This document shows positions 6,627 to 18,206 of a stretch of DNA of 64,000 nucleotides, piece after piece. The position numbers were made by a program, and so were the translations under genes. The stretch's first letter is position 1; the number at the start of each line of letters is the position of its first letter. The stretch covers positions 1,734 through 65,733 of the forward strand of contig JAJZKW010000002.1 in the NCBI GenBank assembly GCA_021803945.1. The letters are read 5' to 3'. This DNA comes from Candidatus Micrarchaeota archaeon. Lineage in GTDB: Archaea; Micrarchaeota; Micrarchaeia; Micrarchaeales; CABMGC01. Under the pieces are notes generated by a model. It was given only the letters and a program-made list of their open reading frames with translations. It was not told the DNA's origin and did no database searches.

Positions 6627-6923
6627 ATGAACGATAAGCAATGTAATTGCGACAATGAAGGCGGCAAGCAGTGCTCCTGCGGAAGCATGAATGAGGGGCA
6701 GTGCGGCTGCGGAAGTGGCGGAGAGAAGCAGTGCAGCTGCGGAAACAGCGGAGGAGGGCAGTGCGGCTGCGGAGGCAGAGGCCACATGCAACACGGGAAA
6801 ATGAGGGAATTCTTCACAACCGATGAGATAATAGATGGTCTCAAGGAGTACAAGAAGACGCTTGCAAAGGAGATTCTTGGAATAGACGAGAAAATAAAGA
6901 AGATAGAGAAGGAAAAAAAGTAA
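6627..6923 (+). CDS. Cys-rich repeat protein (5x QCxC[G/D]) with C-terminal coiled-coil; DUF5320-like architecture
   Basis: 98-aa ORF with 10 Cys in five CxC pairs at an exact 10-aa period, then a Lys/Glu-rich helix (EYKKTLAKEILGIDEKIKKIEKEKK). Divergent from padR, with a TATA-like GTATAAATG immediately upstream. Confidence 0.65.
   Translation: MNDKQCNCDNEGGKQCSCGSMNEGQCGCGSGGEKQCSCGNSGGGQCGCGGRGHMQHGKMREFFTTDEIIDGLKEYKKTLAKEILGIDEKIKKIEKEKK
6630..6779 (+). repeat. Five in-frame 30-nt tandem coding repeats
   Basis: GCAGTGCnnCTGCGGA recurs at 6668, 6698, 6728 and 6758, with a degenerate copy (CAATGT) at 6639. The period is exactly 30 nt. Confidence 0.9.
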
Positions 6924-6963
6924 TTTCCTTCCAGTTTTTTAATTTTTGATATCCTGAGGCACA

Positions 6964-7332: not shown

Positions 7333-10300
7333 TCACCTACATCCCGGCGAAGTGATCCATGCACACCCATTCACGCTCGGGCATATGTTGCCTCCGAGGT
7401 CCTTGCTCGTACTGCTCGTCGCAGATCCCGAGCAGTAGAATCCATTCAGCGAATTCGATATTATGTTGTCCTTTATTGAAGTGAACTGTGAATTGCCTAT
7501 CCTTATCCCGAAGGACGAGTTGCTTATCGTGTTGTTTTCAAGGCTGGTCGAGAGGCTCTGGTTTAAGCTCACTCCTGTGTCCGTCCCTGATATATTGTTG
7601 TCCTGAACAGTGCTGCTGTTGTATGCGTAAAGATAGATGCCATCCGAAGAATTTATTATGTGGTTGCCCTGGATATTGGAGTACTCTGAATTGTTGACGT
7701 ATATTGAGCTGTTTGACGATCCAACAAACGTGTTGTTCAGTATCGAGATGCCTGACACAGCAGCCTTCGAGTTGAATACCGCGGCATTGGTGAATCCTAT
7801 CAATATGCAGTTCTTAAGCGTCACCCTACTGGTATTGTAAGACGATACAAAGCTTCCCCCATTTGTTGCTAATATCGTGTGCCCGTTGCAGTCTATGGTA
7901 GTGCCATCGGCAGTAAGGTTGCCCGCAGAGCGTATCGCGAAGCATGTGTCGTTATATGGGTACACCATGTCCTGCGTAAGTGATATTGTATCAGGGCTTG
8001 TTATGAGGGTGCACACCTGCGAGAGATAGACGGGAGATACTTCAACAAGCCAGTCACAGTTCACATTCGATACCCCATAGTTTATCCTGCCGTACTGCGC
8101 GTACACTCCTGAAGAGTCAGGAGAGCATGAATAGCTATAGCCGCTTCCAGAATAAACATGATTGTCGTATATCGTGTTGTGCATTGATCCTGAGATTAGA
8201 AATCCATAGTCTGTGAAGTTTGCAGTATTGTTCAATACCTTGTTGTTGTGAGCGCCTGACAGTACAAAACCGTATCCTGAAGGCGCAGAGTTCGCCCTGT
8301 TCCCGATCAGCGAACTACTGTTGGTATTTACCAATGAGTATGCCTGCGTGCCGAAATTAGCCACCAGGTTGTTCGAGATGTATGCATCTGTACCGTTGCT
8401 TATGTTGACTCCGCTGCCGACGAAACGTATCACAGAAGATGTAAGGCTTAGAGAACGCGTATTGCTTGCCATGAGCCCGCTCCCGAATCCAGATATCGAA
8501 CACCCGTTTACCGTCACATTCGAGACGTTGTCCATGCCGAACGCCGCGCCTATGCCAGTCGTAGATATTATCGAACTGTTCGCCGTGCAGTTTATTCCGA
8601 CCATGCTTGTGTCTATCTTGAAGCATGCTCCCTTAGCGAATATCTTCCCACCTATGGAATAATGCCCTGGCGCAGTTATCGTGGCGCATCCCCTAAGAGG
8701 GTATGCGCTCAGGTTAGGTAAGACCTTGACAGCGCATGATGTTGCCCAATTGCAGTCCGTGCTTGTGCATTTCACCCCAGTTGCAGAAAGCAAGCTCGAA
8801 TTGTAGGTATTCGTGGAACAGAAGAGGTCCACCTTGGAGCTCAGGGAGCTTTCGCCGTTCCTAAGGTACACATCAGTGGAATTGTCAAGGGTTATGCCGT
8901 ACGTGTTGTTTGTCATGTTAAATCCGCCCACTGTCGCATATGTTGTGCCGTTTATGTAGAATCCGTACACGTTCGAGTATGCACTAGAGTTCAGCAGGCT
9001 TCCATCAGTCGACGAACGTATGTAGATCCCGTACCTGCCGTTGTGCACAATCGTCGACCCGATCCCGAATTTCACAGCATTGACCAGATAGATTCCATAA
9101 GTGTTGTTCTGCAGGTTGCATCCCTGTATGGTTACGTTGTAAGCCCCGTTGTCCGACAGTATGCCATAAGGCGCGTTCTTTATTGTGTATCCATCGCACC
9201 TGAGGTTCACGTTTGATGCGTTGATGAGTATGCATGGTACTGTTCCTGCGCCTGGCTCCGATGCATTCATGTACGCTGCGAAGTTGAGATCGGATCCGAT
9301 GGTGTATGTGCCTGACGTGTCTATGCTGCCGCACGAATCTATCGCAGGGCTGAGTGTTACGCCTGTTACTGATGCCTGGGTGTTGTTCGCCGAGCAGTAT
9401 GCAAAATTGCAGAATCTGTTCACATAGCATGACGAATTGTAGAACCTGTTAGATGCGCTGAAGCTTGATGTTCCGGAGCATGCGATGTCCACAGGGTTGC
9501 CAAGCATAACCGACTTGATCACCCTGTTGCCTACAGAATTCATGAGCGAAATGCCGTAATAGGAGTTGTACTCCACAATGTCCCTGGACAATGTATTGTT
9601 CCCTCCTCCAGTCACGTTTATGGCGCCCGATACGCCCCCTGCGCTCCTAATATAATCATTGTATATGTGGTTGCGGCTGGATTCGTAGAGGTAGATCCCG
9701 GACCGTGTGGCGTTCTTTGAGGTGACGTTAAATACTGTGTCATTGTTGGATGCATTCAGGTATATGCCATAAGAGAATGCGGATACTACAAGGTTTGTTA
9801 TGCTGACATTCGGCTCGGAGCTGACTTCGACCCCATACGATACGGGCCCATTTACTGTAAATGGGCCAGACCCGGCTATAGCATGTCCCTTTCCGTCAAG
9901 AACCACTCCGCTGGACCCTATCTTCATGCATGTTCCTCCTCCAACAGGCGCAGTTACATTGTTTGCCAGGTAATAGCTCCCCGGCTTTGATATTGTAGTG
10001 CATGAATTTATCGCAAAGGCCGGAAGCCCAGTGGTATTTATTCTTATTGGAGGAGCAGGCATGCTGCTGATGAACGAATAGGCCATCCAGGCTATTATCA
10101 GCACTACAATAACTCCTGCAATTATCTTAATCGACCCTCCATATCTTTCAATCAACTCTTGCCTATCGATCGCAATGCCCTTGCTTGGGCGAGCAGGCGG
10201 TTGCTTAGCTGCAGTCTCCGCTCCTCCCTGGTTGACTTGGATCTGATTAGCTGGTTCCTGCTTCGCTGTTTCCGCTGTCTCCTCTCCATCATCCTGGCCA

Positions 10301-10395
10301 AGGTCTCCGCCCATACCTGTAGCATCAGCTGCCTTGCCCGGATTGTCCTGACCAGCATTTACGTTGGGATCATGCTGGGTTTGGTTATCTGTCAT
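7333..10395 (-). CDS. Large N-terminally anchored surface protein with four parallel beta-helix (PbH1/NosD-like) modules
   Basis: 1020 aa. An acidic, disordered N-terminus of about 88 aa is followed by one TM helix (IIAGVIVVLIIAWMAYSFI). Four modules then each open with C..I..PG.Y and carry many short G/N/S/T-rich turns (NN.I..N..GI.L). Cys-rich linkers separate the modules. There are roughly 40 N-x-S/T sequons by eye. Confidence 0.75.
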   Translation of the reverse strand: MTDNQTQHDPNVNAGQDNPGKAADATGMGGDLGQDDGEETAETAKQEPANQIQVNQGGAETAAKQPPARPSKGIAIDRQELIERYGGSIKIIAGVIVVLIIAWMAYSFISSMPAPPIRINTTGLPAFAINSCTTISKPGSYYLANNVTAPVGGGTCMKIGSSGVVLDGKGHAIAGSGPFTVNGPVSYGVEVSSEPNVSITNLVVSAFSYGIYLNASNNDTVFNVTSKNATRSGIYLYESSRNHIYNDYIRSAGGVSGAINVTGGGNNTLSRDIVEYNSYYGISLMNSVGNRVIKSVMLGNPVDIACSGTSSFSASNRFYNSSCYVNRFCNFAYCSANNTQASVTGVTLSPAIDSCGSIDTSGTYTIGSDLNFAAYMNASEPGAGTVPCILINASNVNLRCDGYTIKNAPYGILSDNGAYNVTIQGCNLQNNTYGIYLVNAVKFGIGSTIVHNGRYGIYIRSSTDGSLLNSSAYSNVYGFYINGTTYATVGGFNMTNNTYGITLDNSTDVYLRNGESSLSSKVDLFCSTNTYNSSLLSATGVKCTSTDCNWATSCAVKVLPNLSAYPLRGCATITAPGHYSIGGKIFAKGACFKIDTSMVGINCTANSSIISTTGIGAAFGMDNVSNVTVNGCSISGFGSGLMASNTRSLSLTSSVIRFVGSGVNISNGTDAYISNNLVANFGTQAYSLVNTNSSSLIGNRANSAPSGYGFVLSGAHNNKVLNNTANFTDYGFLISGSMHNTIYDNHVYSGSGYSYSCSPDSSGVYAQYGRINYGVSNVNCDWLVEVSPVYLSQVCTLITSPDTISLTQDMVYPYNDTCFAIRSAGNLTADGTTIDCNGHTILATNGGSFVSSYNTSRVTLKNCILIGFTNAAVFNSKAAVSGISILNNTFVGSSNSSIYVNNSEYSNIQGNHIINSSDGIYLYAYNSSTVQDNNISGTDTGVSLNQSLSTSLENNTISNSSFGIRIGNSQFTSIKDNIISNSLNGFYCSGSATSSTSKDLGGNICPSVNGCAWITSPGCR

Positions 10396-11504: not shown

Positions 11505-11517
11505 TTTGTGGCAATCC

Positions 11518-11883
11518 ATGGAATTCAATGAACTTACTGACGAAGAAGAAGATGTCATAATCCGCAAGGGCACAGAACGCCCTTTCAGCGGAGAGTACGA
11601 CACATTTTTCAAGGAAGGGGCATACGTATGCAGGAGGTGCGGGTCCCATCTGTACAATTCTGGAGACAAGTTTGACGCAAGGTGTGGATGGCCGAGCTTT
11701 GATCAGGAGGTGAGGGGCGCAGTCAAAAGGGTTCCTGATAAAGACGGTTTAAGGACAGAGATACAGTGCGCAAGGTGCGGAGCCCATCTGGGCCACGTCT
11801 TCCTCGGTGAAGGTATGACTGCAAAAAACACGCGGCATTGCGTGAACTCAGTATCTCTCAAGTTCATACCCAAAGGGAAATAG
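11518..11883 (+). CDS. msrB: Peptide-methionine (R)-S-oxide reductase MsrB
   Basis: Two CxxC zinc pairs (CRRCGSHL, CARCGAHLGHVF) and the catalytic RHCVNS. ATG 11518 is preferred to TTG 11506. Confidence 0.9.
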   Translation: MEFNELTDEEEDVIIRKGTERPFSGEYDTFFKEGAYVCRRCGSHLYNSGDKFDARCGWPSFDQEVRGAVKRVPDKDGLRTEIQCARCGAHLGHVFLGEGMTAKNTRHCVNSVSLKFIPKGK

Positions 11884-11884
11884 C

Positions 11885-12412
11885 ATGCCCAAGCCAAAAA
11901 CCGAGACCATTGTCTTTGGAGGCGGATGCTTCTGGTGCACAGAGGCAGTCTTCTCGATGTTTGATGGGGTAGTACGCACAACCCCAGGATACTCTGGAGG
12001 AACGAAGAAAAACCCTACTTACGAAGAGGTGTGCTCTGGAACCACAGGACATGCAGAGGTCCTTGAAATAGAATACAATCCTGCCATAGCGCCTCTTGAG
12101 AAGCTTCTCGACGTCTTCTTCAGCATGCACGACCCTACCTCCCTGAACAGGCAGGAAGCTGATGTCGGGTCGCAGTACAGGTCTATAATACTCTGCACTT
12201 CGGACAGCCAGAGGGATGAAGCTGAGAAGTTTATAGTCCGGATACAGGAGCGCTATGAGAAGCCGATAGTCACTGAAGTAAAGATGCTGGGCGCCTTCTA
12301 TCCGTCCGAGGACTACCACAAAGACTACTACAAGAGCAATCCGTTGCAGCCTTACTGCATGCTGGTCATAGGGCCAAAAGTGCAGAAGATAAGGAAAAAG
12401 TACGGCATATAG
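11885..12412 (+). CDS. msrA: Peptide-methionine (S)-S-oxide reductase MsrA
   Basis: GGGCFWCTEAVF active-site motif and GHAEVLEIEYNP. It begins 1 nt after the msrB stop. Confidence 0.9.
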   Translation: MPKPKTETIVFGGGCFWCTEAVFSMFDGVVRTTPGYSGGTKKNPTYEEVCSGTTGHAEVLEIEYNPAIAPLEKLLDVFFSMHDPTSLNRQEADVGSQYRSIILCTSDSQRDEAEKFIVRIQERYEKPIVTEVKMLGAFYPSEDYHKDYYKSNPLQPYCMLVIGPKVQKIRKKYGI

Positions 12413-12550
12413 GAAAAACGACAAGACCGCAGGCACAAGTCAGCCAGCTTCTCTAATACTGCGAATGATTTATGGAAATACAATTCCATTTCAGATAGCT
12501 ATAAATACATATTATGTTTTATAACTCTGTTATAATCTTAGCTGATATTC

Positions 12551-12892
12551 ATGGCAAACGGGTACCAAAGGGCTTCGAAGGAGATAGTGCCTGCTGCAAG
12601 GCTGCTGATAGCGAAGCAGCTAAAGGAGAAATACAACATGTCGGAGACGAATATAGCCGCTGTAATGGGCGTCGCCCAGGCTGCGGTTAGCAAATACCTC
12701 AACGGAAAGTATTCAAAGACGGTTGAGAGGGTCTCTCGTGAGCTCGATGCAGGCTGCATGGACAGGTATCTGTCTTACATTGCCAAGGGAGACCAGAAGG
12801 TGCTAAAGAGCTGCATATGCTCCCTGTGCCATTCAGTAAACAGCTTCGGCTGCAAGTTCTCGCCGTTCAGCGATGAAACGGCCAAGGCATAA
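12551..12892 (+). CDS. HTH transcriptional regulator with C-terminal Cys cluster, first gene of the suf operon
   Basis: ETNIAAVMGVAQAAVSKYLNGK is an XRE-like helix-turn-helix. The C-terminus reads CICSLCHSVNSFGC (C-x-C-x2-C-x8-C). It ends 8 nt before the sufB ATG. Confidence 0.6.
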   Translation: MANGYQRASKEIVPAARLLIAKQLKEKYNMSETNIAAVMGVAQAAVSKYLNGKYSKTVERVSRELDAGCMDRYLSYIAKGDQKVLKSCICSLCHSVNSFGCKFSPFSDETAKA

Positions 12893-12900
12893 GTGAGTTG

Positions 12901-14316
12901 ATGGTAAACGAAGGACTTGAAGAGGTAGTTGAAAGGAAGGAATACGCCGAGAAATACGGGTTCTACCAGGATATCTCATACGACGAGTTCCCCAAAGGGC
13001 TTTCAGAGGAAGTCGTAAGGAGTATTTCGAGGATAAAGGGCGAACCGGAATGGATGCTTGAAAAGAGGCTTACAGGGCTGAAGGTATTCTTAAGCAAGCC
13101 GATGCCGTCGTGGGGAGCCGACCTGAGCGATATAAAGTTCGATGATTTCTACTACTACATGAGCCCGAAGGCGAATGAGGAGTCGAGCAAGTGGGAGAAC
13201 GTGCCAGATGACATAAAGCAGACTTTCGACAAGCTCGGTGTCCCAGAAGCTGAGAGGAAATTCTTTGCAGGAGCCGAAGCGCAGTTCGACAGTTCAGTGG
13301 TGTACTCGCACATAAACGCAGAGCTGGAGAAACTTGGAGTGGTATTCACAGATACTGACACTGCGGTGAAGAAGTATCCCGAGCTGATGAAGAAGTACTG
13401 GGGCACCATAATACCTCCTACTGACAACAAGTTCGCTGCACTCAACACTGCGACATGGTCTGGAGGGTCTTTCATATACGTGCCTAAGGGCGTGAAGGTG
13501 CCGATGCCGCTTAATGCTTATTTCAGAATCAATGCCAAGAACTCCGGGCAGTTCGAGAGGACGCTTATAATCGCAGATGAAGGCGCCGAGGTGGTTTATC
13601 TCGAGGGATGCACTGCCTTAGTGTACGCTTCCAACTCCCTCCATTCTGCAGTGGTGGAGCTCGTTGCGCTTGAAGGCGCCCACATAAGGTACGTGACGAT
13701 ACAGAACTGGTCCAAAAACGTATACAACCTCGTCACGCAGCGCGCACACGTATCAAAGAACGCACGGGTGGAGTGGATCGACGCAAATATAGGCAGCAAG
13801 ATAAACATGAAGTACCCCAGCATATTCCTCAACGGCGAAGGCGCCAGGGGAGAGGTGCTTTCAATAGCGATCGCCGGAGACGGTCAGATACAGGATTCAG
13901 GAGGCAAGATATACCATCTCGCCCCGAACACCACCTCAAAGATAATATCTAAGAGTGTGTCGAAGGGAAGCGGAGTAACGACATTCAGGGGGCTGCTTCA
14001 TGTGGCAAAGAATGCCGAAAACGTGAAGTCGCACGTGTCATGCGATGCGCTCCTGCTAGATGAGGACGCGAAGACCAATACCTTCCCATACAACCAGATA
14101 AACAGGAGCGACGCAGTCATAAGCCACGAGGCAAAGGTAGGAAAGATAAGCGACGACGAGATATTCTACCTTATGTCAAGAGGCCTGAACGAGGACGACG
14201 CCACCGCAATGATAGTGCTAGGATTCATAGACGACCTTACGAAGGTCCTCCCTGTCGAATATTCGCTTGAGCTCAAGAGGCTTATCAAGATAGACACGAG
14301 CAAAGGAGTAGGCTAA
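12901..14316 (+). CDS. sufB: Fe-S cluster assembly scaffold SufB
   Basis: About 470 aa with a SufB-type beta-helix core and the C-terminal FYLMSRGL...A..MIV.GF motif. Confidence 0.9.
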   Translation: MVNEGLEEVVERKEYAEKYGFYQDISYDEFPKGLSEEVVRSISRIKGEPEWMLEKRLTGLKVFLSKPMPSWGADLSDIKFDDFYYYMSPKANEESSKWENVPDDIKQTFDKLGVPEAERKFFAGAEAQFDSSVVYSHINAELEKLGVVFTDTDTAVKKYPELMKKYWGTIIPPTDNKFAALNTATWSGGSFIYVPKGVKVPMPLNAYFRINAKNSGQFERTLIIADEGAEVVYLEGCTALVYASNSLHSAVVELVALEGAHIRYVTIQNWSKNVYNLVTQRAHVSKNARVEWIDANIGSKINMKYPSIFLNGEGARGEVLSIAIAGDGQIQDSGGKIYHLAPNTTSKIISKSVSKGSGVTTFRGLLHVAKNAENVKSHVSCDALLLDEDAKTNTFPYNQINRSDAVISHEAKVGKISDDEIFYLMSRGLNEDDATAMIVLGFIDDLTKVLPVEYSLELKRLIKIDTSKGVG

Positions 14317-14333: not shown

Positions 14334-15572
14334 ATGATTTCATACAAAGAGTTTGTAGACGATGCTATCCGCAATTATGAGTTGCTTCCCGCGGAATCGA
14401 ACGAGATATACAAGAAGTATGCAGTAAGCATGCCACTCACAGAGATGGGCCAGGAGGCGCAGCCTAGCAGCATGCTCGAGTCGGATATCGAAGGGCTCTC
14501 AAGGGACATTGCGGAAAAGACAAGGATAAAGTTCGATGCAGTGATATCGGGCAACTGGGCGAAGAGCTTCAATCCACACATCAGGATCAGCGCAGGAGAC
14601 AAGGCCGACGTGAGCATGCTTGAGAACAAGCTCTTCAAGAGCAGCGAGGACAAGTTTGCGGCATTCGCAAACGCAAATTCAAGGTATTTCATATCTATAG
14701 ATGCAGGAGACGGAGCGCGCATGAAACTGAACCTCCTATTCGTAAACAGCGGAAACCTCCCTGCGCAGGTGCTGGTAAAAGCCAGCAACAGCTCAAAAAT
14801 CGAGGTGTTCGAGCTTTTCATCTCCGCCAACGGCTCGGGTTCGCTGGTAAGCGTCCTGCACGAGATATCAGCAGACAAGAACTCAGAGGTCGAGCTGAAC
14901 GTGTTGCATAACGAGAACCGTAGTACGCGCATACTTAACCTGTGCAAGGCTGTGGCAGGAGATGATGCAATACTACGCGCAAATTTCATGTACAGCGGCG
15001 GGGCTCTGGTAAAGACAAAAGGACATGCGGATTCTAACGGGATCAACAGCCAGGTTGACATAAGCGAATTCGCCTTGGGGGCAATGGACCAGAAATTCGA
15101 TCTCGGCACGTTCATAGTAAATACAAAGCCGTACAGCATCGCGAGGCTTGAATCGGGGGCTGTGCTGTCGGATTCATCCCAATGCATGCTGAAGGGATTC
15201 GCGAAGGTGGAGAAAGGGGCGAAGGGATGCCTCTCAAAGATCACCGAACGCGGGATACTGCTAAGCAAGGAGGCGCACATAGACGCGCTACCTGACATGT
15301 CGATAGACTACAGCAATGAGGTAAAGGCAACGCATTCGGCAGCCACCGCGCCAATGGACAAGGAGGCTCTCTTCTACCTGATGTCAAGGGGGTTAGAAGA
15401 GAACGCGGCGAGGAAAATGTTTATATCAGCATTCATTGCTAAATACATATACAACATGAAGGAAGGGGTTGCCAGCGCAGTCACGATGTCGGTCATGCTC
15501 AACAAGCTGGATGGCGGCATTCCTGGAGCAATGCCGGACGTCACGACAAGCGGAGTGTGGGGAAACAGGTGA
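14334..15572 (+). CDS. sufD: Fe-S cluster assembly protein SufD (SufB/SufD family)
   Basis: 412-aa paralog of SufB with C-terminal LFYLMSRGLEENAARKM, lacking the SufB N-terminal region. Confidence 0.8.
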   Translation: MISYKEFVDDAIRNYELLPAESNEIYKKYAVSMPLTEMGQEAQPSSMLESDIEGLSRDIAEKTRIKFDAVISGNWAKSFNPHIRISAGDKADVSMLENKLFKSSEDKFAAFANANSRYFISIDAGDGARMKLNLLFVNSGNLPAQVLVKASNSSKIEVFELFISANGSGSLVSVLHEISADKNSEVELNVLHNENRSTRILNLCKAVAGDDAILRANFMYSGGALVKTKGHADSNGINSQVDISEFALGAMDQKFDLGTFIVNTKPYSIARLESGAVLSDSSQCMLKGFAKVEKGAKGCLSKITERGILLSKEAHIDALPDMSIDYSNEVKATHSAATAPMDKEALFYLMSRGLEENAARKMFISAFIAKYIYNMKEGVASAVTMSVMLNKLDGGIPGAMPDVTTSGVWGNR

Positions 15573-15576
15573 GTGC

Positions 15577-16308
15577 ATGATACTTGAGATAAAAGACCTG
15601 AGCGCAGAAGTAGAGCAGAGGAGCGTGCTGAAGGGCCTCAGCCTGAAGGTGGGGGCCGGAGAGATGCATGTCATAATGGGCCCAAACGGTTCAGGGAAGA
15701 CCACGCTGGCAAAGGCGATAATGGGCCATCCTAACACAAAGATAACAAACGGAGAGATACTTGTCGATGGAAACAGGATAAACGACATGCCTGTGAACGA
15801 GAGGGCGAAGCTGGGCATATTCCTGGAGTTCCAGACTCCAGTGGAGATAGAGGGCCTAGGGATAGTAGGATTCCTGAATTCGGCAAGGGGCGCGCTCGGG
15901 AAGGAAAAGATCACCTACAAGGAATTCATGACTGAGATAAAGCAGAATTCAGAGAGCCTTAGGCTCAGGGAGGACCTCGTTGGCAGATCTCTTAACTATG
16001 GGTTCTCAGGAGGGGAGAAGAAGAAGATGGAGATACTTCAGATGTCAGTGCTCAAGCCAAAGCTCGCGATACTCGATGAGCCTGATTCAGGCCTTGACAT
16101 AGATGCAGTAAGGGTTGTAGCGGAGAACATAAACGAATTCAGGAAGAAGACCGGCGCCTCCATACTCCTGATAACACACTATAGCAGGATATTGAACTAC
16201 ATGGACCCACAGTTCATACACGTGATGACAGACGGCAGAATAGCAAGGTCGGGAGGGAAGGAGATAATAGCGGACATAGAGAAGGAAGGGTACACAAAAG
16301 ATGAATGA
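15577..16308 (+). CDS. sufC: Fe-S cluster assembly ATPase SufC
   Basis: Walker A GPNGSGKTT, ABC signature FSGGEKKK, Walker B ILDEPDSGLD. Internal ATG 15577 (MILEIKDLS) is used rather than the track's 15469 extension, which overlaps sufD. Confidence 0.92.
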   Translation: MILEIKDLSAEVEQRSVLKGLSLKVGAGEMHVIMGPNGSGKTTLAKAIMGHPNTKITNGEILVDGNRINDMPVNERAKLGIFLEFQTPVEIEGLGIVGFLNSARGALGKEKITYKEFMTEIKQNSESLRLREDLVGRSLNYGFSGGEKKKMEILQMSVLKPKLAILDEPDSGLDIDAVRVVAENINEFRKKTGASILLITHYSRILNYMDPQFIHVMTDGRIARSGGKEIIADIEKEGYTKDE

Positions 16309-17562
16309 ATGGACGCCCTTGATGTAGACTCCATAAGAAAGGACTTTCCGATACTCGGCACCAAGGTAAACGGCAAACCTCTCATCTACCTCGACAGCGC
16401 AGCAACCTCTCAGAAGCCCAGCTCCGTAATAGAGGCAGTGGACTACTACTACAAGAATTACAATGCAAACATACACAGGGGGCTATACGAACTCTCGATA
16501 AAATCGACAGAGGAGTACGAGAGGTCGAAGGAGCTGGCGGCAAAGTTCATAAACGCCGAATCGTACAGGGAGATAATATACTGCAGGAACGCTACAGACG
16601 CAATAAACATAGTATCGCTATCCTGGGGCGAATCCGGCATATCTGCAGGAGACCGCATACTCATAACTGACATGGAGCATCACAGCAACATAGTGCCCTG
16701 GCTGGAGCTTGCAAAGAGGAAGAAGGCCGTCCTGGACCACGTCGGCCTCGAAGCCGGCTCGTATATAGACATGGAAGACTTCAAGAGGAAACTCGAATCA
16801 AGGCCCAAGATGGTCGCGTTCACAAACGCATCGAATGTCCTGGGTACAATAAACGATGCAAAGAAGATGGCAAGGCTAGCGCACGAAGCCGGAGCAACGG
16901 TCCTTGTGGACTGCGCGCAGACCTCGCCCCACATGGCCCTGGACGTAAGGGACATGGACTGCGACTTCGCCGCGTTCTCAAGCCATAAGATGCTTGGGCC
17001 ATCGGGAATCGGGATACTTTACGGGAAGGCTGCGCTCCTGGAGCAGATAACTCCTGCGATAGTAGGCAGCGACATGATAAGGTCAGTCACGTTCGATTCC
17101 GCAGTCTGGAACGAGCTTCCATGGAAGTTCGAGTCAGGCACACCGAACATCGAAGGCGCAATAGGCTTCGGAGCCGCAATAGAATACCTCAACAAGACAG
17201 GTATGCAAAGGATCAGGCAGCACGAGATCGATATAACGAAGTACGCCATGAAGAGGTTAAGCGAGGTACCAGGAGTGAGCGTCTTCGGCCCGGGGATGGG
17301 CGAACCGGAAAGGCGAGTCGGAGTCATATCCTTCAAGATCGCAGGGGCGCATCCCCATGATGTCGCTCAGATATTCAACAGCGAGGGAATAGCCATACGC
17401 GCAGGGCACCACTGCGCCATGCCACTTGTCACGCAGGTCGTGGGAGAACCGGCAGTATCTAGGATGAGCTTCTATCTATATAACAATAAAGAGGAGGTTG
17501 ACAAGGCGATTGATGCTATAACGAAGGTGAAGAAAGTCCTCAGGCTCGACGGGAAAGAGTAG
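16309..17562 (+). CDS. sufS: Cysteine desulfurase SufS (class V aminotransferase, group II)
   Basis: PLP lysine motif SSHKMLGPSGIG, active-site loop RAGHHCA, and abutting start with sufC. Confidence 0.9.
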   Translation: MDALDVDSIRKDFPILGTKVNGKPLIYLDSAATSQKPSSVIEAVDYYYKNYNANIHRGLYELSIKSTEEYERSKELAAKFINAESYREIIYCRNATDAINIVSLSWGESGISAGDRILITDMEHHSNIVPWLELAKRKKAVLDHVGLEAGSYIDMEDFKRKLESRPKMVAFTNASNVLGTINDAKKMARLAHEAGATVLVDCAQTSPHMALDVRDMDCDFAAFSSHKMLGPSGIGILYGKAALLEQITPAIVGSDMIRSVTFDSAVWNELPWKFESGTPNIEGAIGFGAAIEYLNKTGMQRIRQHEIDITKYAMKRLSEVPGVSVFGPGMGEPERRVGVISFKIAGAHPHDVAQIFNSEGIAIRAGHHCAMPLVTQVVGEPAVSRMSFYLYNNKEEVDKAIDAITKVKKVLRLDGKE

Positions 17563-17585: not shown

Positions 17586-18206
17586 TTACGAGCCGTAATA
17601 TTCATGCTTGCCTAGCACAAGGGCTATTATGTCTTCGAAGTCGACATGCACCTTCTGCTCCCTTTCCACTGACAGTCCGCGCAGGTTTATTGTGCCCCTG
17701 AGCTTTTCAAGGTCTCCAAGGGAGCTTACTACAAGTATTATCTTTCCATATGCCTTCAGGAAATCCGTTGCGCTATCTATGAACTTCTCAGATACCTCGA
17801 TTCCCTTTTCCCCTCCGTACCAGGCCTCGGATAGCTTCATATCGTCCCCGTCCGGTAGATAAGGCGCATTGAATATTATCATATCGAACATGCCTTCCAC
17901 GTTCGAGAACAGGTCGCTCTTCACGACTTCACATTCAGCAGATATCCTATCTGAATTCCTCCGTATATTTTCCTTGCACAGTTCAAGCGCATCGTCATTT
18001 ATGTCAGCGAAGACAACACGTTTCACGTTTGCGTTAGATGCAGCAACGAGTCCGAGGATGCCGCTCCCGCACCCGATTTCGAGAACTTCCACTCCGCCTT
18101 CCATACTGTCAAGCTCCTCTCTGATCATATCGGCCGCAAGGAAGGAGTCCTCAGCCGGAATGTAGACATTGTCATTGGTCAGGATGTCCAGTCCGGCGTA
18201 TTCCAT
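17586..18206 (-). CDS. HemK-related / Mtq2-like N5-glutamine methyltransferase
   Basis: SAM motif LEIGCGSGILG and the substrate motif NAPYLP (an NPPY variant). At 206 aa it matches the archaeal hemK-related family. Confidence 0.7.
   Translation of the reverse strand: MEYAGLDILTNDNVYIPAEDSFLAADMIREELDSMEGGVEVLEIGCGSGILGLVAASNANVKRVVFADINDDALELCKENIRRNSDRISAECEVVKSDLFSNVEGMFDMIIFNAPYLPDGDDMKLSEAWYGGEKGIEVSEKFIDSATDFLKAYGKIILVVSSLGDLEKLRGTINLRGLSVEREQKVHVDFEDIIALVLGKHEYYGS

Follow-up and report, generated by a model that had tools for sequence, protein, structure and literature searches.

A cysteine-tailed XRE-type protein and a conserved promoter palindrome as candidate feedback control of suf operons in Micrarchaeota

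The control of Fe-S cluster biogenesis in archaea is essentially unknown. A small gene preceding sufB in a genome of the Micrarchaeota (DPANN; 902 kb, 94% complete) raises the question of whether these organisms possess a dedicated regulator of their Fe-S assembly machinery and, if so, what such a regulator would sense. The gene lies in a window (the whole stretch of DNA that was analysed, 64,000 nucleotides long, to which all coordinates refer unless a locus is named) that originates from acid mine drainage metagenomes; its close homologues and all the related loci are found in Candidatus Micrarchaeota (DPANN) assemblies. A first-pass annotation had described the gene product as an XRE-like helix-turn-helix (HTH) protein with a four-cysteine tail, and had suggested that it might be an Fe-S-sensing regulator distinct from SufR and IscR.

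The gene (12551..12892, + strand, ATG start, recognized as an ORF and by Pfam) encodes a 113-aa protein, and its XRE-type HTH domain is genuine: residues 22-62 match HTH_3 (PF01381) with 27.9 bits, above the gathering score of 23 (E 2.5e-6). The HTH stretch quoted in the first-pass annotation corresponds to residues 34-53, and the recognition helix, AQAAVSKYL, to residues about 42-50. As had been stated there, the gene stops only 8 nt before sufB (stop codon TAA at 12890-12892, sufB ATG at 12901), and profile matches identify the genes that follow as sufBDCS, with which it probably forms one operon. These genes, all on the + strand, are sufB (12901..14316; TIGR01980, 674 bits, and PF01458; alternative TTG start at 12898), sufD (14334..15572; PF01458, 154.7 bits), the ATPase gene sufC (15577..16308, ATG at 15577; TIGR01978, 311 bits) and, as the last gene of the operon, sufS (16309..17562), coding for a group II cysteine desulfurase (TIGR01979, 546 bits). 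It should be noted that the best NCBIfam match of sufD, TIGR01981 with 167.5 bits, is below the cut-off of that model (222). No SufE/SufU partner could be recognized among the ORFs between 12551 and 17562, even though the operon has a group II SufS. The ORF map places a convergent gene (17586-18206, - strand) after sufS.

On its 5' side, the regulator gene is separated from the end of msrB-msrA (12412) by an intergenic region of 138 bp with its own TATA box (TATAAATA, 12500..12507, + strand, read from the sequence), preceded by the purine-rich, BRE-like stretch AGATAG. The assignment of this box as the promoter TATA box is inferred from the archaeal consensus and was not measured.

Some features of the surroundings deserve mention in their own right. 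The methionine sulfoxide reductase genes msrB-msrA (11506-12412) adjoin the regulator-suf operon in the window, and are also adjacent in 7 of 30 orthologous loci (L003, L004, L005, L007, L010, L011 and L018); L005 and L011 have them in divergent orientation, with the intergenic region bearing the palindrome described below common to both transcription units. The msrB-msrA and suf genes may form an oxidative-stress gene neighbourhood. Farther upstream, a 1020-aa ORF (7333-10395, - strand) with an N-terminal hydrophobic stretch, many N-x-S/T sequons and repetitive Asn/Ser/Gly-rich segments probably encodes a glycosylated beta-helix surface protein. The sufB gene of the window contains no intein, and in-frame inteins were found in sufB after the conserved ...LEG|C motif at L002:6347-8929 and L015:1048-2901. 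Further sufB inteins are present in L006, L014, L022, L025 and L030, and in several loci of the sister family or from metagenomes (among them L053, L055, L056, L063, L065, L076 and L105); the inserts are either about 380 aa long with a LAGLIDADG endonuclease domain, or mini-inteins of 136-165 aa.

A word-indexed search returned 28 other homologues with 38-89% identity to the regulator. Its tail reads C88-I-C90-S-L-C93-(HSVNSFG)-C101, i.e. C-x-C-x2-C-x7-C; the motif announced in the first-pass annotation is therefore present, but its last spacer is of seven residues rather than eight. In the alignments, C90, C93 and C101 are invariant in all 27 close Cys-bearing homologues and in all 36 of the more distant relatives. 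Conservation of this kind, over such a range of identity, means that the ORF is more than a chance reading frame. The fourth cysteine of the tail behaves differently: C88 is kept in more than 90% of the 27 close homologues, but roughly one in three of 30 species-level orthologues has A, Y or L at this position. Four cysteines are thus a property of the protein of the window, but only three are invariant, and the tail is better described as Cys3(+1) than as Cys4. The additional upstream cysteine that had been pointed out, C69, does exist but is not conserved, being already replaced in the homologue with 89% identity, and was rejected as a ligand for this reason.

An exhaustive profile search extended the family to 1,082 proteins at E up to 0.001. 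In an alignment of 36 distant Cys-bearing members, the sole invariant positions were P14, Q43-A44, K48 and the C-x2-C-x7-C triad, Q43-A44 and K48 being part of the recognition-helix consensus [AT]QAAVSKY. The complete family signature ([YC]-E ... P-A-x-R, [AT]QAAVSKY, C-x2-C-x7-C), whose elements are invariant or nearly so in the alignments, is found in the protein of the window. Two family members, P0041 (226 aa) and P0156 (247 aa), are tandem versions with two HTH modules, each with its own Cys motif.

If homologues were unlinked to suf genes elsewhere, the first-pass annotation had reasoned, a role in suf regulation would be refuted. This check was run, and the linkage held. A scan of loci from one genome per species yielded 39 loci, 30 of them with Cys-bearing orthologues (family f1) and nine with Cys-poor paralogues. 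In all 30 Cys-bearing loci of f1, the regulator gene is found immediately 5' of sufB-sufD-sufC-sufS. In the sister family f2 the order is sufB-sufD-regulator-sufC-sufS in each of the 20 loci fetched, so that all 50 Micrarchaeota loci with Cys-bearing orthologues have the gene within a suf operon, and the linkage has survived a rearrangement which placed the gene first in one family and between sufD and sufC in the other. In a sample of 401 Micrarchaeota genomes, profile matches were present in 77 of 82 f1 genomes and in 75 of 94 f2 genomes; among the genomes counted here and in the family tallies given further below are two unpublished ones, G197 and G029 (one per family), which contributed no sequence and support no other claim. 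None of the nine Cys-poor paralogue loci has a suf gene within 6 kb.

Nearly every f1 or f2 genome encodes one such Cys-poor paralogue. That of the genome under study (G000:C21:15938-16222; L041:1444-1812) is located directly upstream of a glutamate dehydrogenase gene, has a similar recognition helix (IAQVAVSKYL), carries one N-terminal and one C-terminal cysteine, and lacks the palindrome.

Support independent of gene order came from the promoter. An alignment of the 160-nt upstream regions of the window gene and of the 30 orthologues revealed nothing in common but the TATA box and a perfect TATAAC-N3-GTTATA. In the window, this candidate operator is a perfect 17-bp palindrome, TTATAAC-TCT-GTTATAA (12519..12535, no strand; core at 12520-12534), lying downstream of the TATA box, whose first base is 27 bp away from the palindrome's centre. 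The last base of the palindrome lies 16 nt ahead of the start codon, and the element is expected to overlap the transcription start. It is the single exact copy in the window (0.07 expected at up to one mismatch), and is unique in the 902-kb genome. Three sites with one mismatch exist in the genome, but the reversed control pattern gives no fewer and their neighbours are unrelated genes, so they were not retained as members of a regulon.

A single copy per locus, at the 5' end of the operon, is present in 29 of the 30 f1 loci, with one mismatch in the thirtieth. In the orthologous loci, TATA-like boxes begin 25-35 bp ahead of the palindrome's centre; over both families, the palindrome lies about 18-35 bp past the TATA box. 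In f2 it occurs upstream of sufB in 19 of 20 loci, 18-25 bp past a TTTAAATA-type box, while the contig of the twentieth ends short of that region. Because in f2 it remains on the 5' side of sufB, about 2.7 kb from the regulator gene (up to 3.9 kb where sufB has an intein), the palindrome is tied to the promoter of the operon rather than to the regulator gene. None of the nine Cys-poor paralogue loci contains it. The centres of its two inverted half-sites are spaced by 9 bp, which is suited to a dimer of HTH domains; dimer binding itself remains an inference.

The palindrome is found where operators of archaeal repressors are typically situated, downstream of the TATA box, ahead of the start codon and over the expected start site. 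The lack of binding data for the HTH protein nevertheless leaves room for another factor to bind the palindrome, or for the protein to act as an activator; in that case the HTH protein might merely be carried along or serve a different purpose, for instance as a chaperone-like or cluster-carrying accessory of the Suf system. The Cys-poor paralogue encoded by the f1 and f2 genomes shares the helix motif and could in principle recognize a similar site, but, as seen above, its own loci have no palindrome. The position typical of a repressor operator also speaks against these possibilities, as does the fact that presence or absence of the palindrome follows the Cys-bearing gene, and variants of the operator follow variants of the helix. 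We consider this explanation very improbable.

The last two points emerge from a comparison with lineages in which the regulator is rarely or never found. The regulator is not universal with SUF: the tallies for SufBD and for the regulator are, respectively, 58/76 and 1/76 in family f9, 16/17 and 0/17 in f13, 7/7 and 0/7 in f10, and 21/30 and 2/30 in f4. Twenty suf loci from such regulator-poor Micrarchaeota lineages were used as a negative control, and neither TATAAC-N3-GTTATA nor its core ATAAC-N3-GTTAT was present within 8.7 kb in any of them. In 18 of the 20, no homologue of the regulator was found near the suf genes. The two exceptions (L169:1682-2110 and L168, reverse, about 6716-6928) encode divergent homologues in which the helix contains TPAA..Q instead of [AT]QAAVSK, and the perfect palindromes upstream of these two are of another sequence, TTAACTATAGTTAA and TAACAATTGTTA. 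Whether the palindrome is present, and in which sequence, thus follows the regulator, and the two divergent cases suggest, as far as comparison of sequences can, that recognition helix and operator co-vary.

In our opinion it is very likely that the regulator controls suf through the palindrome, notwithstanding the absence of binding data. Related genomes are not independent samples, so that the raw counts suggest more separate confirmations than there are; what can be counted as independent is the existence of four distinct operon layouts (see below) and the negative control.

A metagenome scan seeded solely on the conserved recognition-helix peptide gave 80 loci, 71 of which were informative. 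In 65 of the 71, a relative of the regulator is encoded directly beside Fe-S biogenesis genes, which strengthens the original suggestion of a suf-linked regulator and widens it. The layouts were regulator-sufB (14 loci), sufD-regulator(-sufC) (21 loci), regulator-sufC with the 5' side missing (4 loci), regulator-sufC-sufB in an SMS-like order (9 loci), and regulator followed by a NifS/IscS-type cysteine desulfurase (17 loci); in both of the nifS-linked loci that were checked, the next gene encodes a NifU/IscU-type scaffold. In each class, most complete metagenome loci have TATAAC-N3-GTTATA at the 5' end; among the nifS-linked ones it is present in 10 of 20. The relatives linked to nifS-nifU or sufCB look as if they come from other, unidentified archaeal lineages.

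Two observations on Micrarchaeota families without SufBD can be taken only as leads. A homologue precedes a cysteine desulfurase gene in three of the five genomes examined, and at L147:820-2741 (genome G102) the palindrome TATAAC-N3-GTTATA is followed by an operon for a ThiI-like PP-loop sulfurtransferase (PF02568), a regulator homologue with at least four cysteines, and DUF2085, a membrane protein.

If the regulator acts on the suf promoter, the question remains of what it senses. The location of the gene in its own target operon, the cysteine triad with a variable fourth ligand, and the association with three kinds of Fe-S or sulphur-mobilization operons point together to a sensor of the product of the operon. 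The N-terminus may be part of the site. In the relatives linked to nifS or sufCB, a cysteine (in the motif 'PCE') aligns with Y5, and many of the still more distant members likewise have an N-terminal 'PCE' aligned with Y5-E6 together with a C-terminal CxxC of variable spacing. Among 329 distinct sequences, an N-terminal Tyr goes with CxxCx7C in 142 of 147 cases, a figure that is merely descriptive since the sequences are related. This pattern hints that the N-terminus contributes to the cysteine site.

No experiment or structure shows a cluster, and CxxC-containing triads can bind zinc or form disulphides, so the choice of an Fe-S cluster over either of these is inferred. A structural zinc ion, forming a zinc knuckle in a C-terminal dimerization region, would leave the protein a palindrome-binding regulator of suf, responding to another signal or simply setting an autoregulated basal level. 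CxxC with further cysteines is a common zinc motif, about two thirds of the f1 proteins have four cysteines, and Pfam gives a weak, sub-threshold match to the zinc-ribbon model PF10058 (E 0.02). Structural zinc sites, however, usually keep four Cys/His ligands, while here just three cysteines are invariant; many orthologues have A, Y or L in place of the fourth, and all members of the sister family have exactly three. In addition, the family tracks Fe-S and sulphur-mobilization operons that differ from one another, as would be expected of a sensor of their product. Structural zinc therefore appears unlikely, though it cannot be dismissed.

Structure prediction did not settle the matter. The AlphaFold2 monomer, calculated from a 27-sequence alignment, has six helices and a mean pLDDT of 76.6; the HTH is made up of helices 32-39 and 43-50, and C88, C90 and C93 lie in helix 82-96, whereas C101 falls in a low-confidence tail. 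The disorder predicted around C101 counts against a cluster, but is also what one would anticipate where a cofactor is required. Searches with this model gave no match against the PDB with Foldseek at E up to 0.001; with VIA-align wide, the best hit had a Z of 5.3 and concerned only the HTH of DeoR, and NsrR, at Z 4.1, was within noise. Sequence and profile searches of the PDB returned weak matches to generic HTH segments only, and no solved structure matching the whole protein. The ESM Atlas structure search retrieved clusters of archaeal HTH_3 and HTH_3+ThiN proteins (TM about 0.7); that these look-alikes are all archaeal, from several phyla, is no more than a lead.

A thiol redox switch was considered as well. 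C90-x2-C93, with C101 or C88, could form a disulphide under oxidative stress, releasing the operator and inducing the oxidant-resistant SUF system much as in SurR. C90-x2-C93 is a classical CxxC motif, acid mine drainage is an oxidising habitat, and the proximity of msrB-msrA, seen in the window and also in 7 of 30 orthologous loci (in two of them with divergent orientation), would fit such a switch. The palindrome, however, is absent from msrBA. A disulphide would need neither a third invariant cysteine at fixed spacing nor an N-terminal Cys/Tyr that co-varies with the tail, and the relatives head nifS-nifU and sufCB operons, apparently in other archaeal lineages. We regard such a switch as quite unlikely.

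The reading we prefer is that of a dimeric autorepressor with a cysteine-held Fe-S cluster reporting the Fe-S supply, which we judge probable, though well short of established, since cluster binding is inferred. A dimer of the XRE-type HTH protein would bind TATAAC-N3-GTTATA over the expected transcription start, just past the TATA box, and would there block initiation of the regulator-sufB-sufD-sufC-sufS transcript, including its own gene. Repression rather than activation is itself an inference. The invariant C90, C93 and C101 would be ligands of an Fe-S cluster assembled by the Suf machinery, with a fourth ligand provided by C88 where present, or by the conserved N-terminal Y5/E6. As long as the supply of clusters is sufficient, the holo-protein would repress; once clusters run short or oxidants destroy them, the apo-protein would leave the operator, and suf would be derepressed. 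It must be stressed that the holo-protein is only presumed to be the DNA-binding form, the direction of the response resting solely on the position of the operator and on analogy with known systems.

The closest analogy is with SufR, a [4Fe-4S] protein with three Cys and one Glu as ligands, which represses in its holo-form and is autoregulated (PMC6034842; bioRxiv 10.64898/2025.12.26.696629). It belongs to COG2345 and is about 220-250 aa long; its winged HTH, at the N-terminus, is joined by a GRP AT-hook, and its sensor domain is C-terminal. Archaeal COG2345 (SufR-like) proteins have been reported upstream of suf in Thermoplasmata in a 2025 preprint (bioRxiv 10.64898/2025.12.26.696629). The protein studied here resembles SufR of cyanobacteria and actinobacteria (e.g. 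Rv1460 of M. tuberculosis) in being encoded first in, or adjacent to, the suf operon, in the palindrome on the suf promoter, in having three conserved cysteines (set here in a different context, their role as cluster ligands together with a possible non-Cys residue being inferred), and in the proposed logic. It differs in architecture, as SufR is about twice as long, with winged HTH, AT-hook and separate sensor domain, whereas the present regulator has 113 aa, an XRE-type HTH, and its cysteines in a short tail. The operators differ as well, CAAC-N6-GTTG (or ACACT-N5-TGTGA) for SufR as against the conserved TATAAC-N3-GTTATA. No GRP tripeptide is present in the regulator, and Pfam, NCBIfam and PDB searches gave no sequence match to SufR. 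The COG2345 proteins of Thermoplasmata are a different family from the Cys-tailed regulator.

Among Rrf2 proteins, IscR has three Cys and one His as ligands and exerts feedback control on Fe-S biogenesis operons, while NsrR has three Cys and one Asp, the fourth ligand coming from the N-terminal region of the partner subunit. The regulator shares with IscR, NsrR and RsrR the small HTH protein, dimeric in Rrf2 and presumed so here, and the three cysteines with a variable further ligand, which is likewise presumed here; the co-variation of its N-terminal Y5/Cys with the C-terminal motif is a parallel. In contrast, Rrf2 proteins have a winged HTH (PF02082) and the motif C-x5/6-C-x5-C(+His/Asp/Glu) instead of C-x2-C-x7-C, and Rrf2 does not appear among the Pfam or NCBIfam matches of the regulator at E up to 0.1. 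The claim that the protein is distinct from SufR and IscR therefore stands, there being no sequence or architectural match to either COG2345 or Rrf2. Apart from generic HTH models, in fact, the regulator has no significant match to any curated family in Pfam and NCBIfam. By its HTH domain it is a member of the XRE/Cro-C1 HTH_3 group (PF01381), which includes the HTH of the archaeal ThiN-fused regulators; homologues of the regulator carry the HTH_3 assignment too. To the best of our knowledge, no XRE-family member with such a cysteine tail, or with control over Fe-S assembly, has been described, and none was found in the literature searched.

MqsA-type antitoxins, in which an N-terminal CxxCG...CxxCG zinc ribbon precedes the HTH and which are paired with a toxin gene, were ruled out: the match to TIGR03830 is limited to the HTH (18.4 bits against a cut-off of 61.8), the cysteines of the regulator are C-terminal, and its neighbours are suf genes, with no toxin. 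SurR of Pyrococcus and Thermococcus (cited in PMC6981617) is an archaeal regulator whose CxxC switches DNA binding according to the redox or sulphur state. Its fold is an ArsR-type winged HTH with the disulphide switch in an N-terminal CxxC, and its targets are hydrogenase and sulphur-reduction genes, outside Fe-S assembly operons.

Reviews name only bacterial Fe-S sensors, such as IscR, SufR, RirA and NsrR (PMC13066941), and no candidate regulator of Fe-S biogenesis in archaea was found in the literature searched besides the COG2345 SufR-like proteins. The family proposed here, archaeal Cys-tailed XRE regulators of Fe-S and sulphur-mobilization operons, was not found described in the full-text literature searched, in which subscription journals are poorly covered, so this is no proof of absence. 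The window also shows the genomic hallmarks proposed for the family, a gene placed in or at the head of an Fe-S biogenesis operon with (T)ATAAC-N3-GTTAT(A) on its promoter.

Taken as a whole, the regulator, which is no homologue of SufR or IscR, is rather more plausibly than not a feedback regulator of Fe-S biogenesis built on a new scaffold, with the proviso that the feedback role is inferred. More tentative, and in our estimate slightly below an even chance, is the broader hypothesis of an ancient, archaea-wide regulator with an ATAAC-N3-GTTAT operator, serving NifS-NifU (MIS-like), SufCB (SMS-like) and full SUF operons, and carrying a cluster on its C-terminal cysteine triad and an N-terminal residue, as an independent counterpart of IscR and SufR on the XRE scaffold.

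The 113-aa protein and its 15-17 bp operator represent a concrete, testable pair, for which the comparative evidence is sufficient to design direct experiments. Should the cysteines prove to bind a cluster, an Fe-S-sensing repressor of Fe-S assembly would have been invented independently for a third time, here on the widespread XRE fold, and the pair would offer a handle on Fe-S homeostasis in the genome-reduced DPANN archaea, which keep very few regulators.
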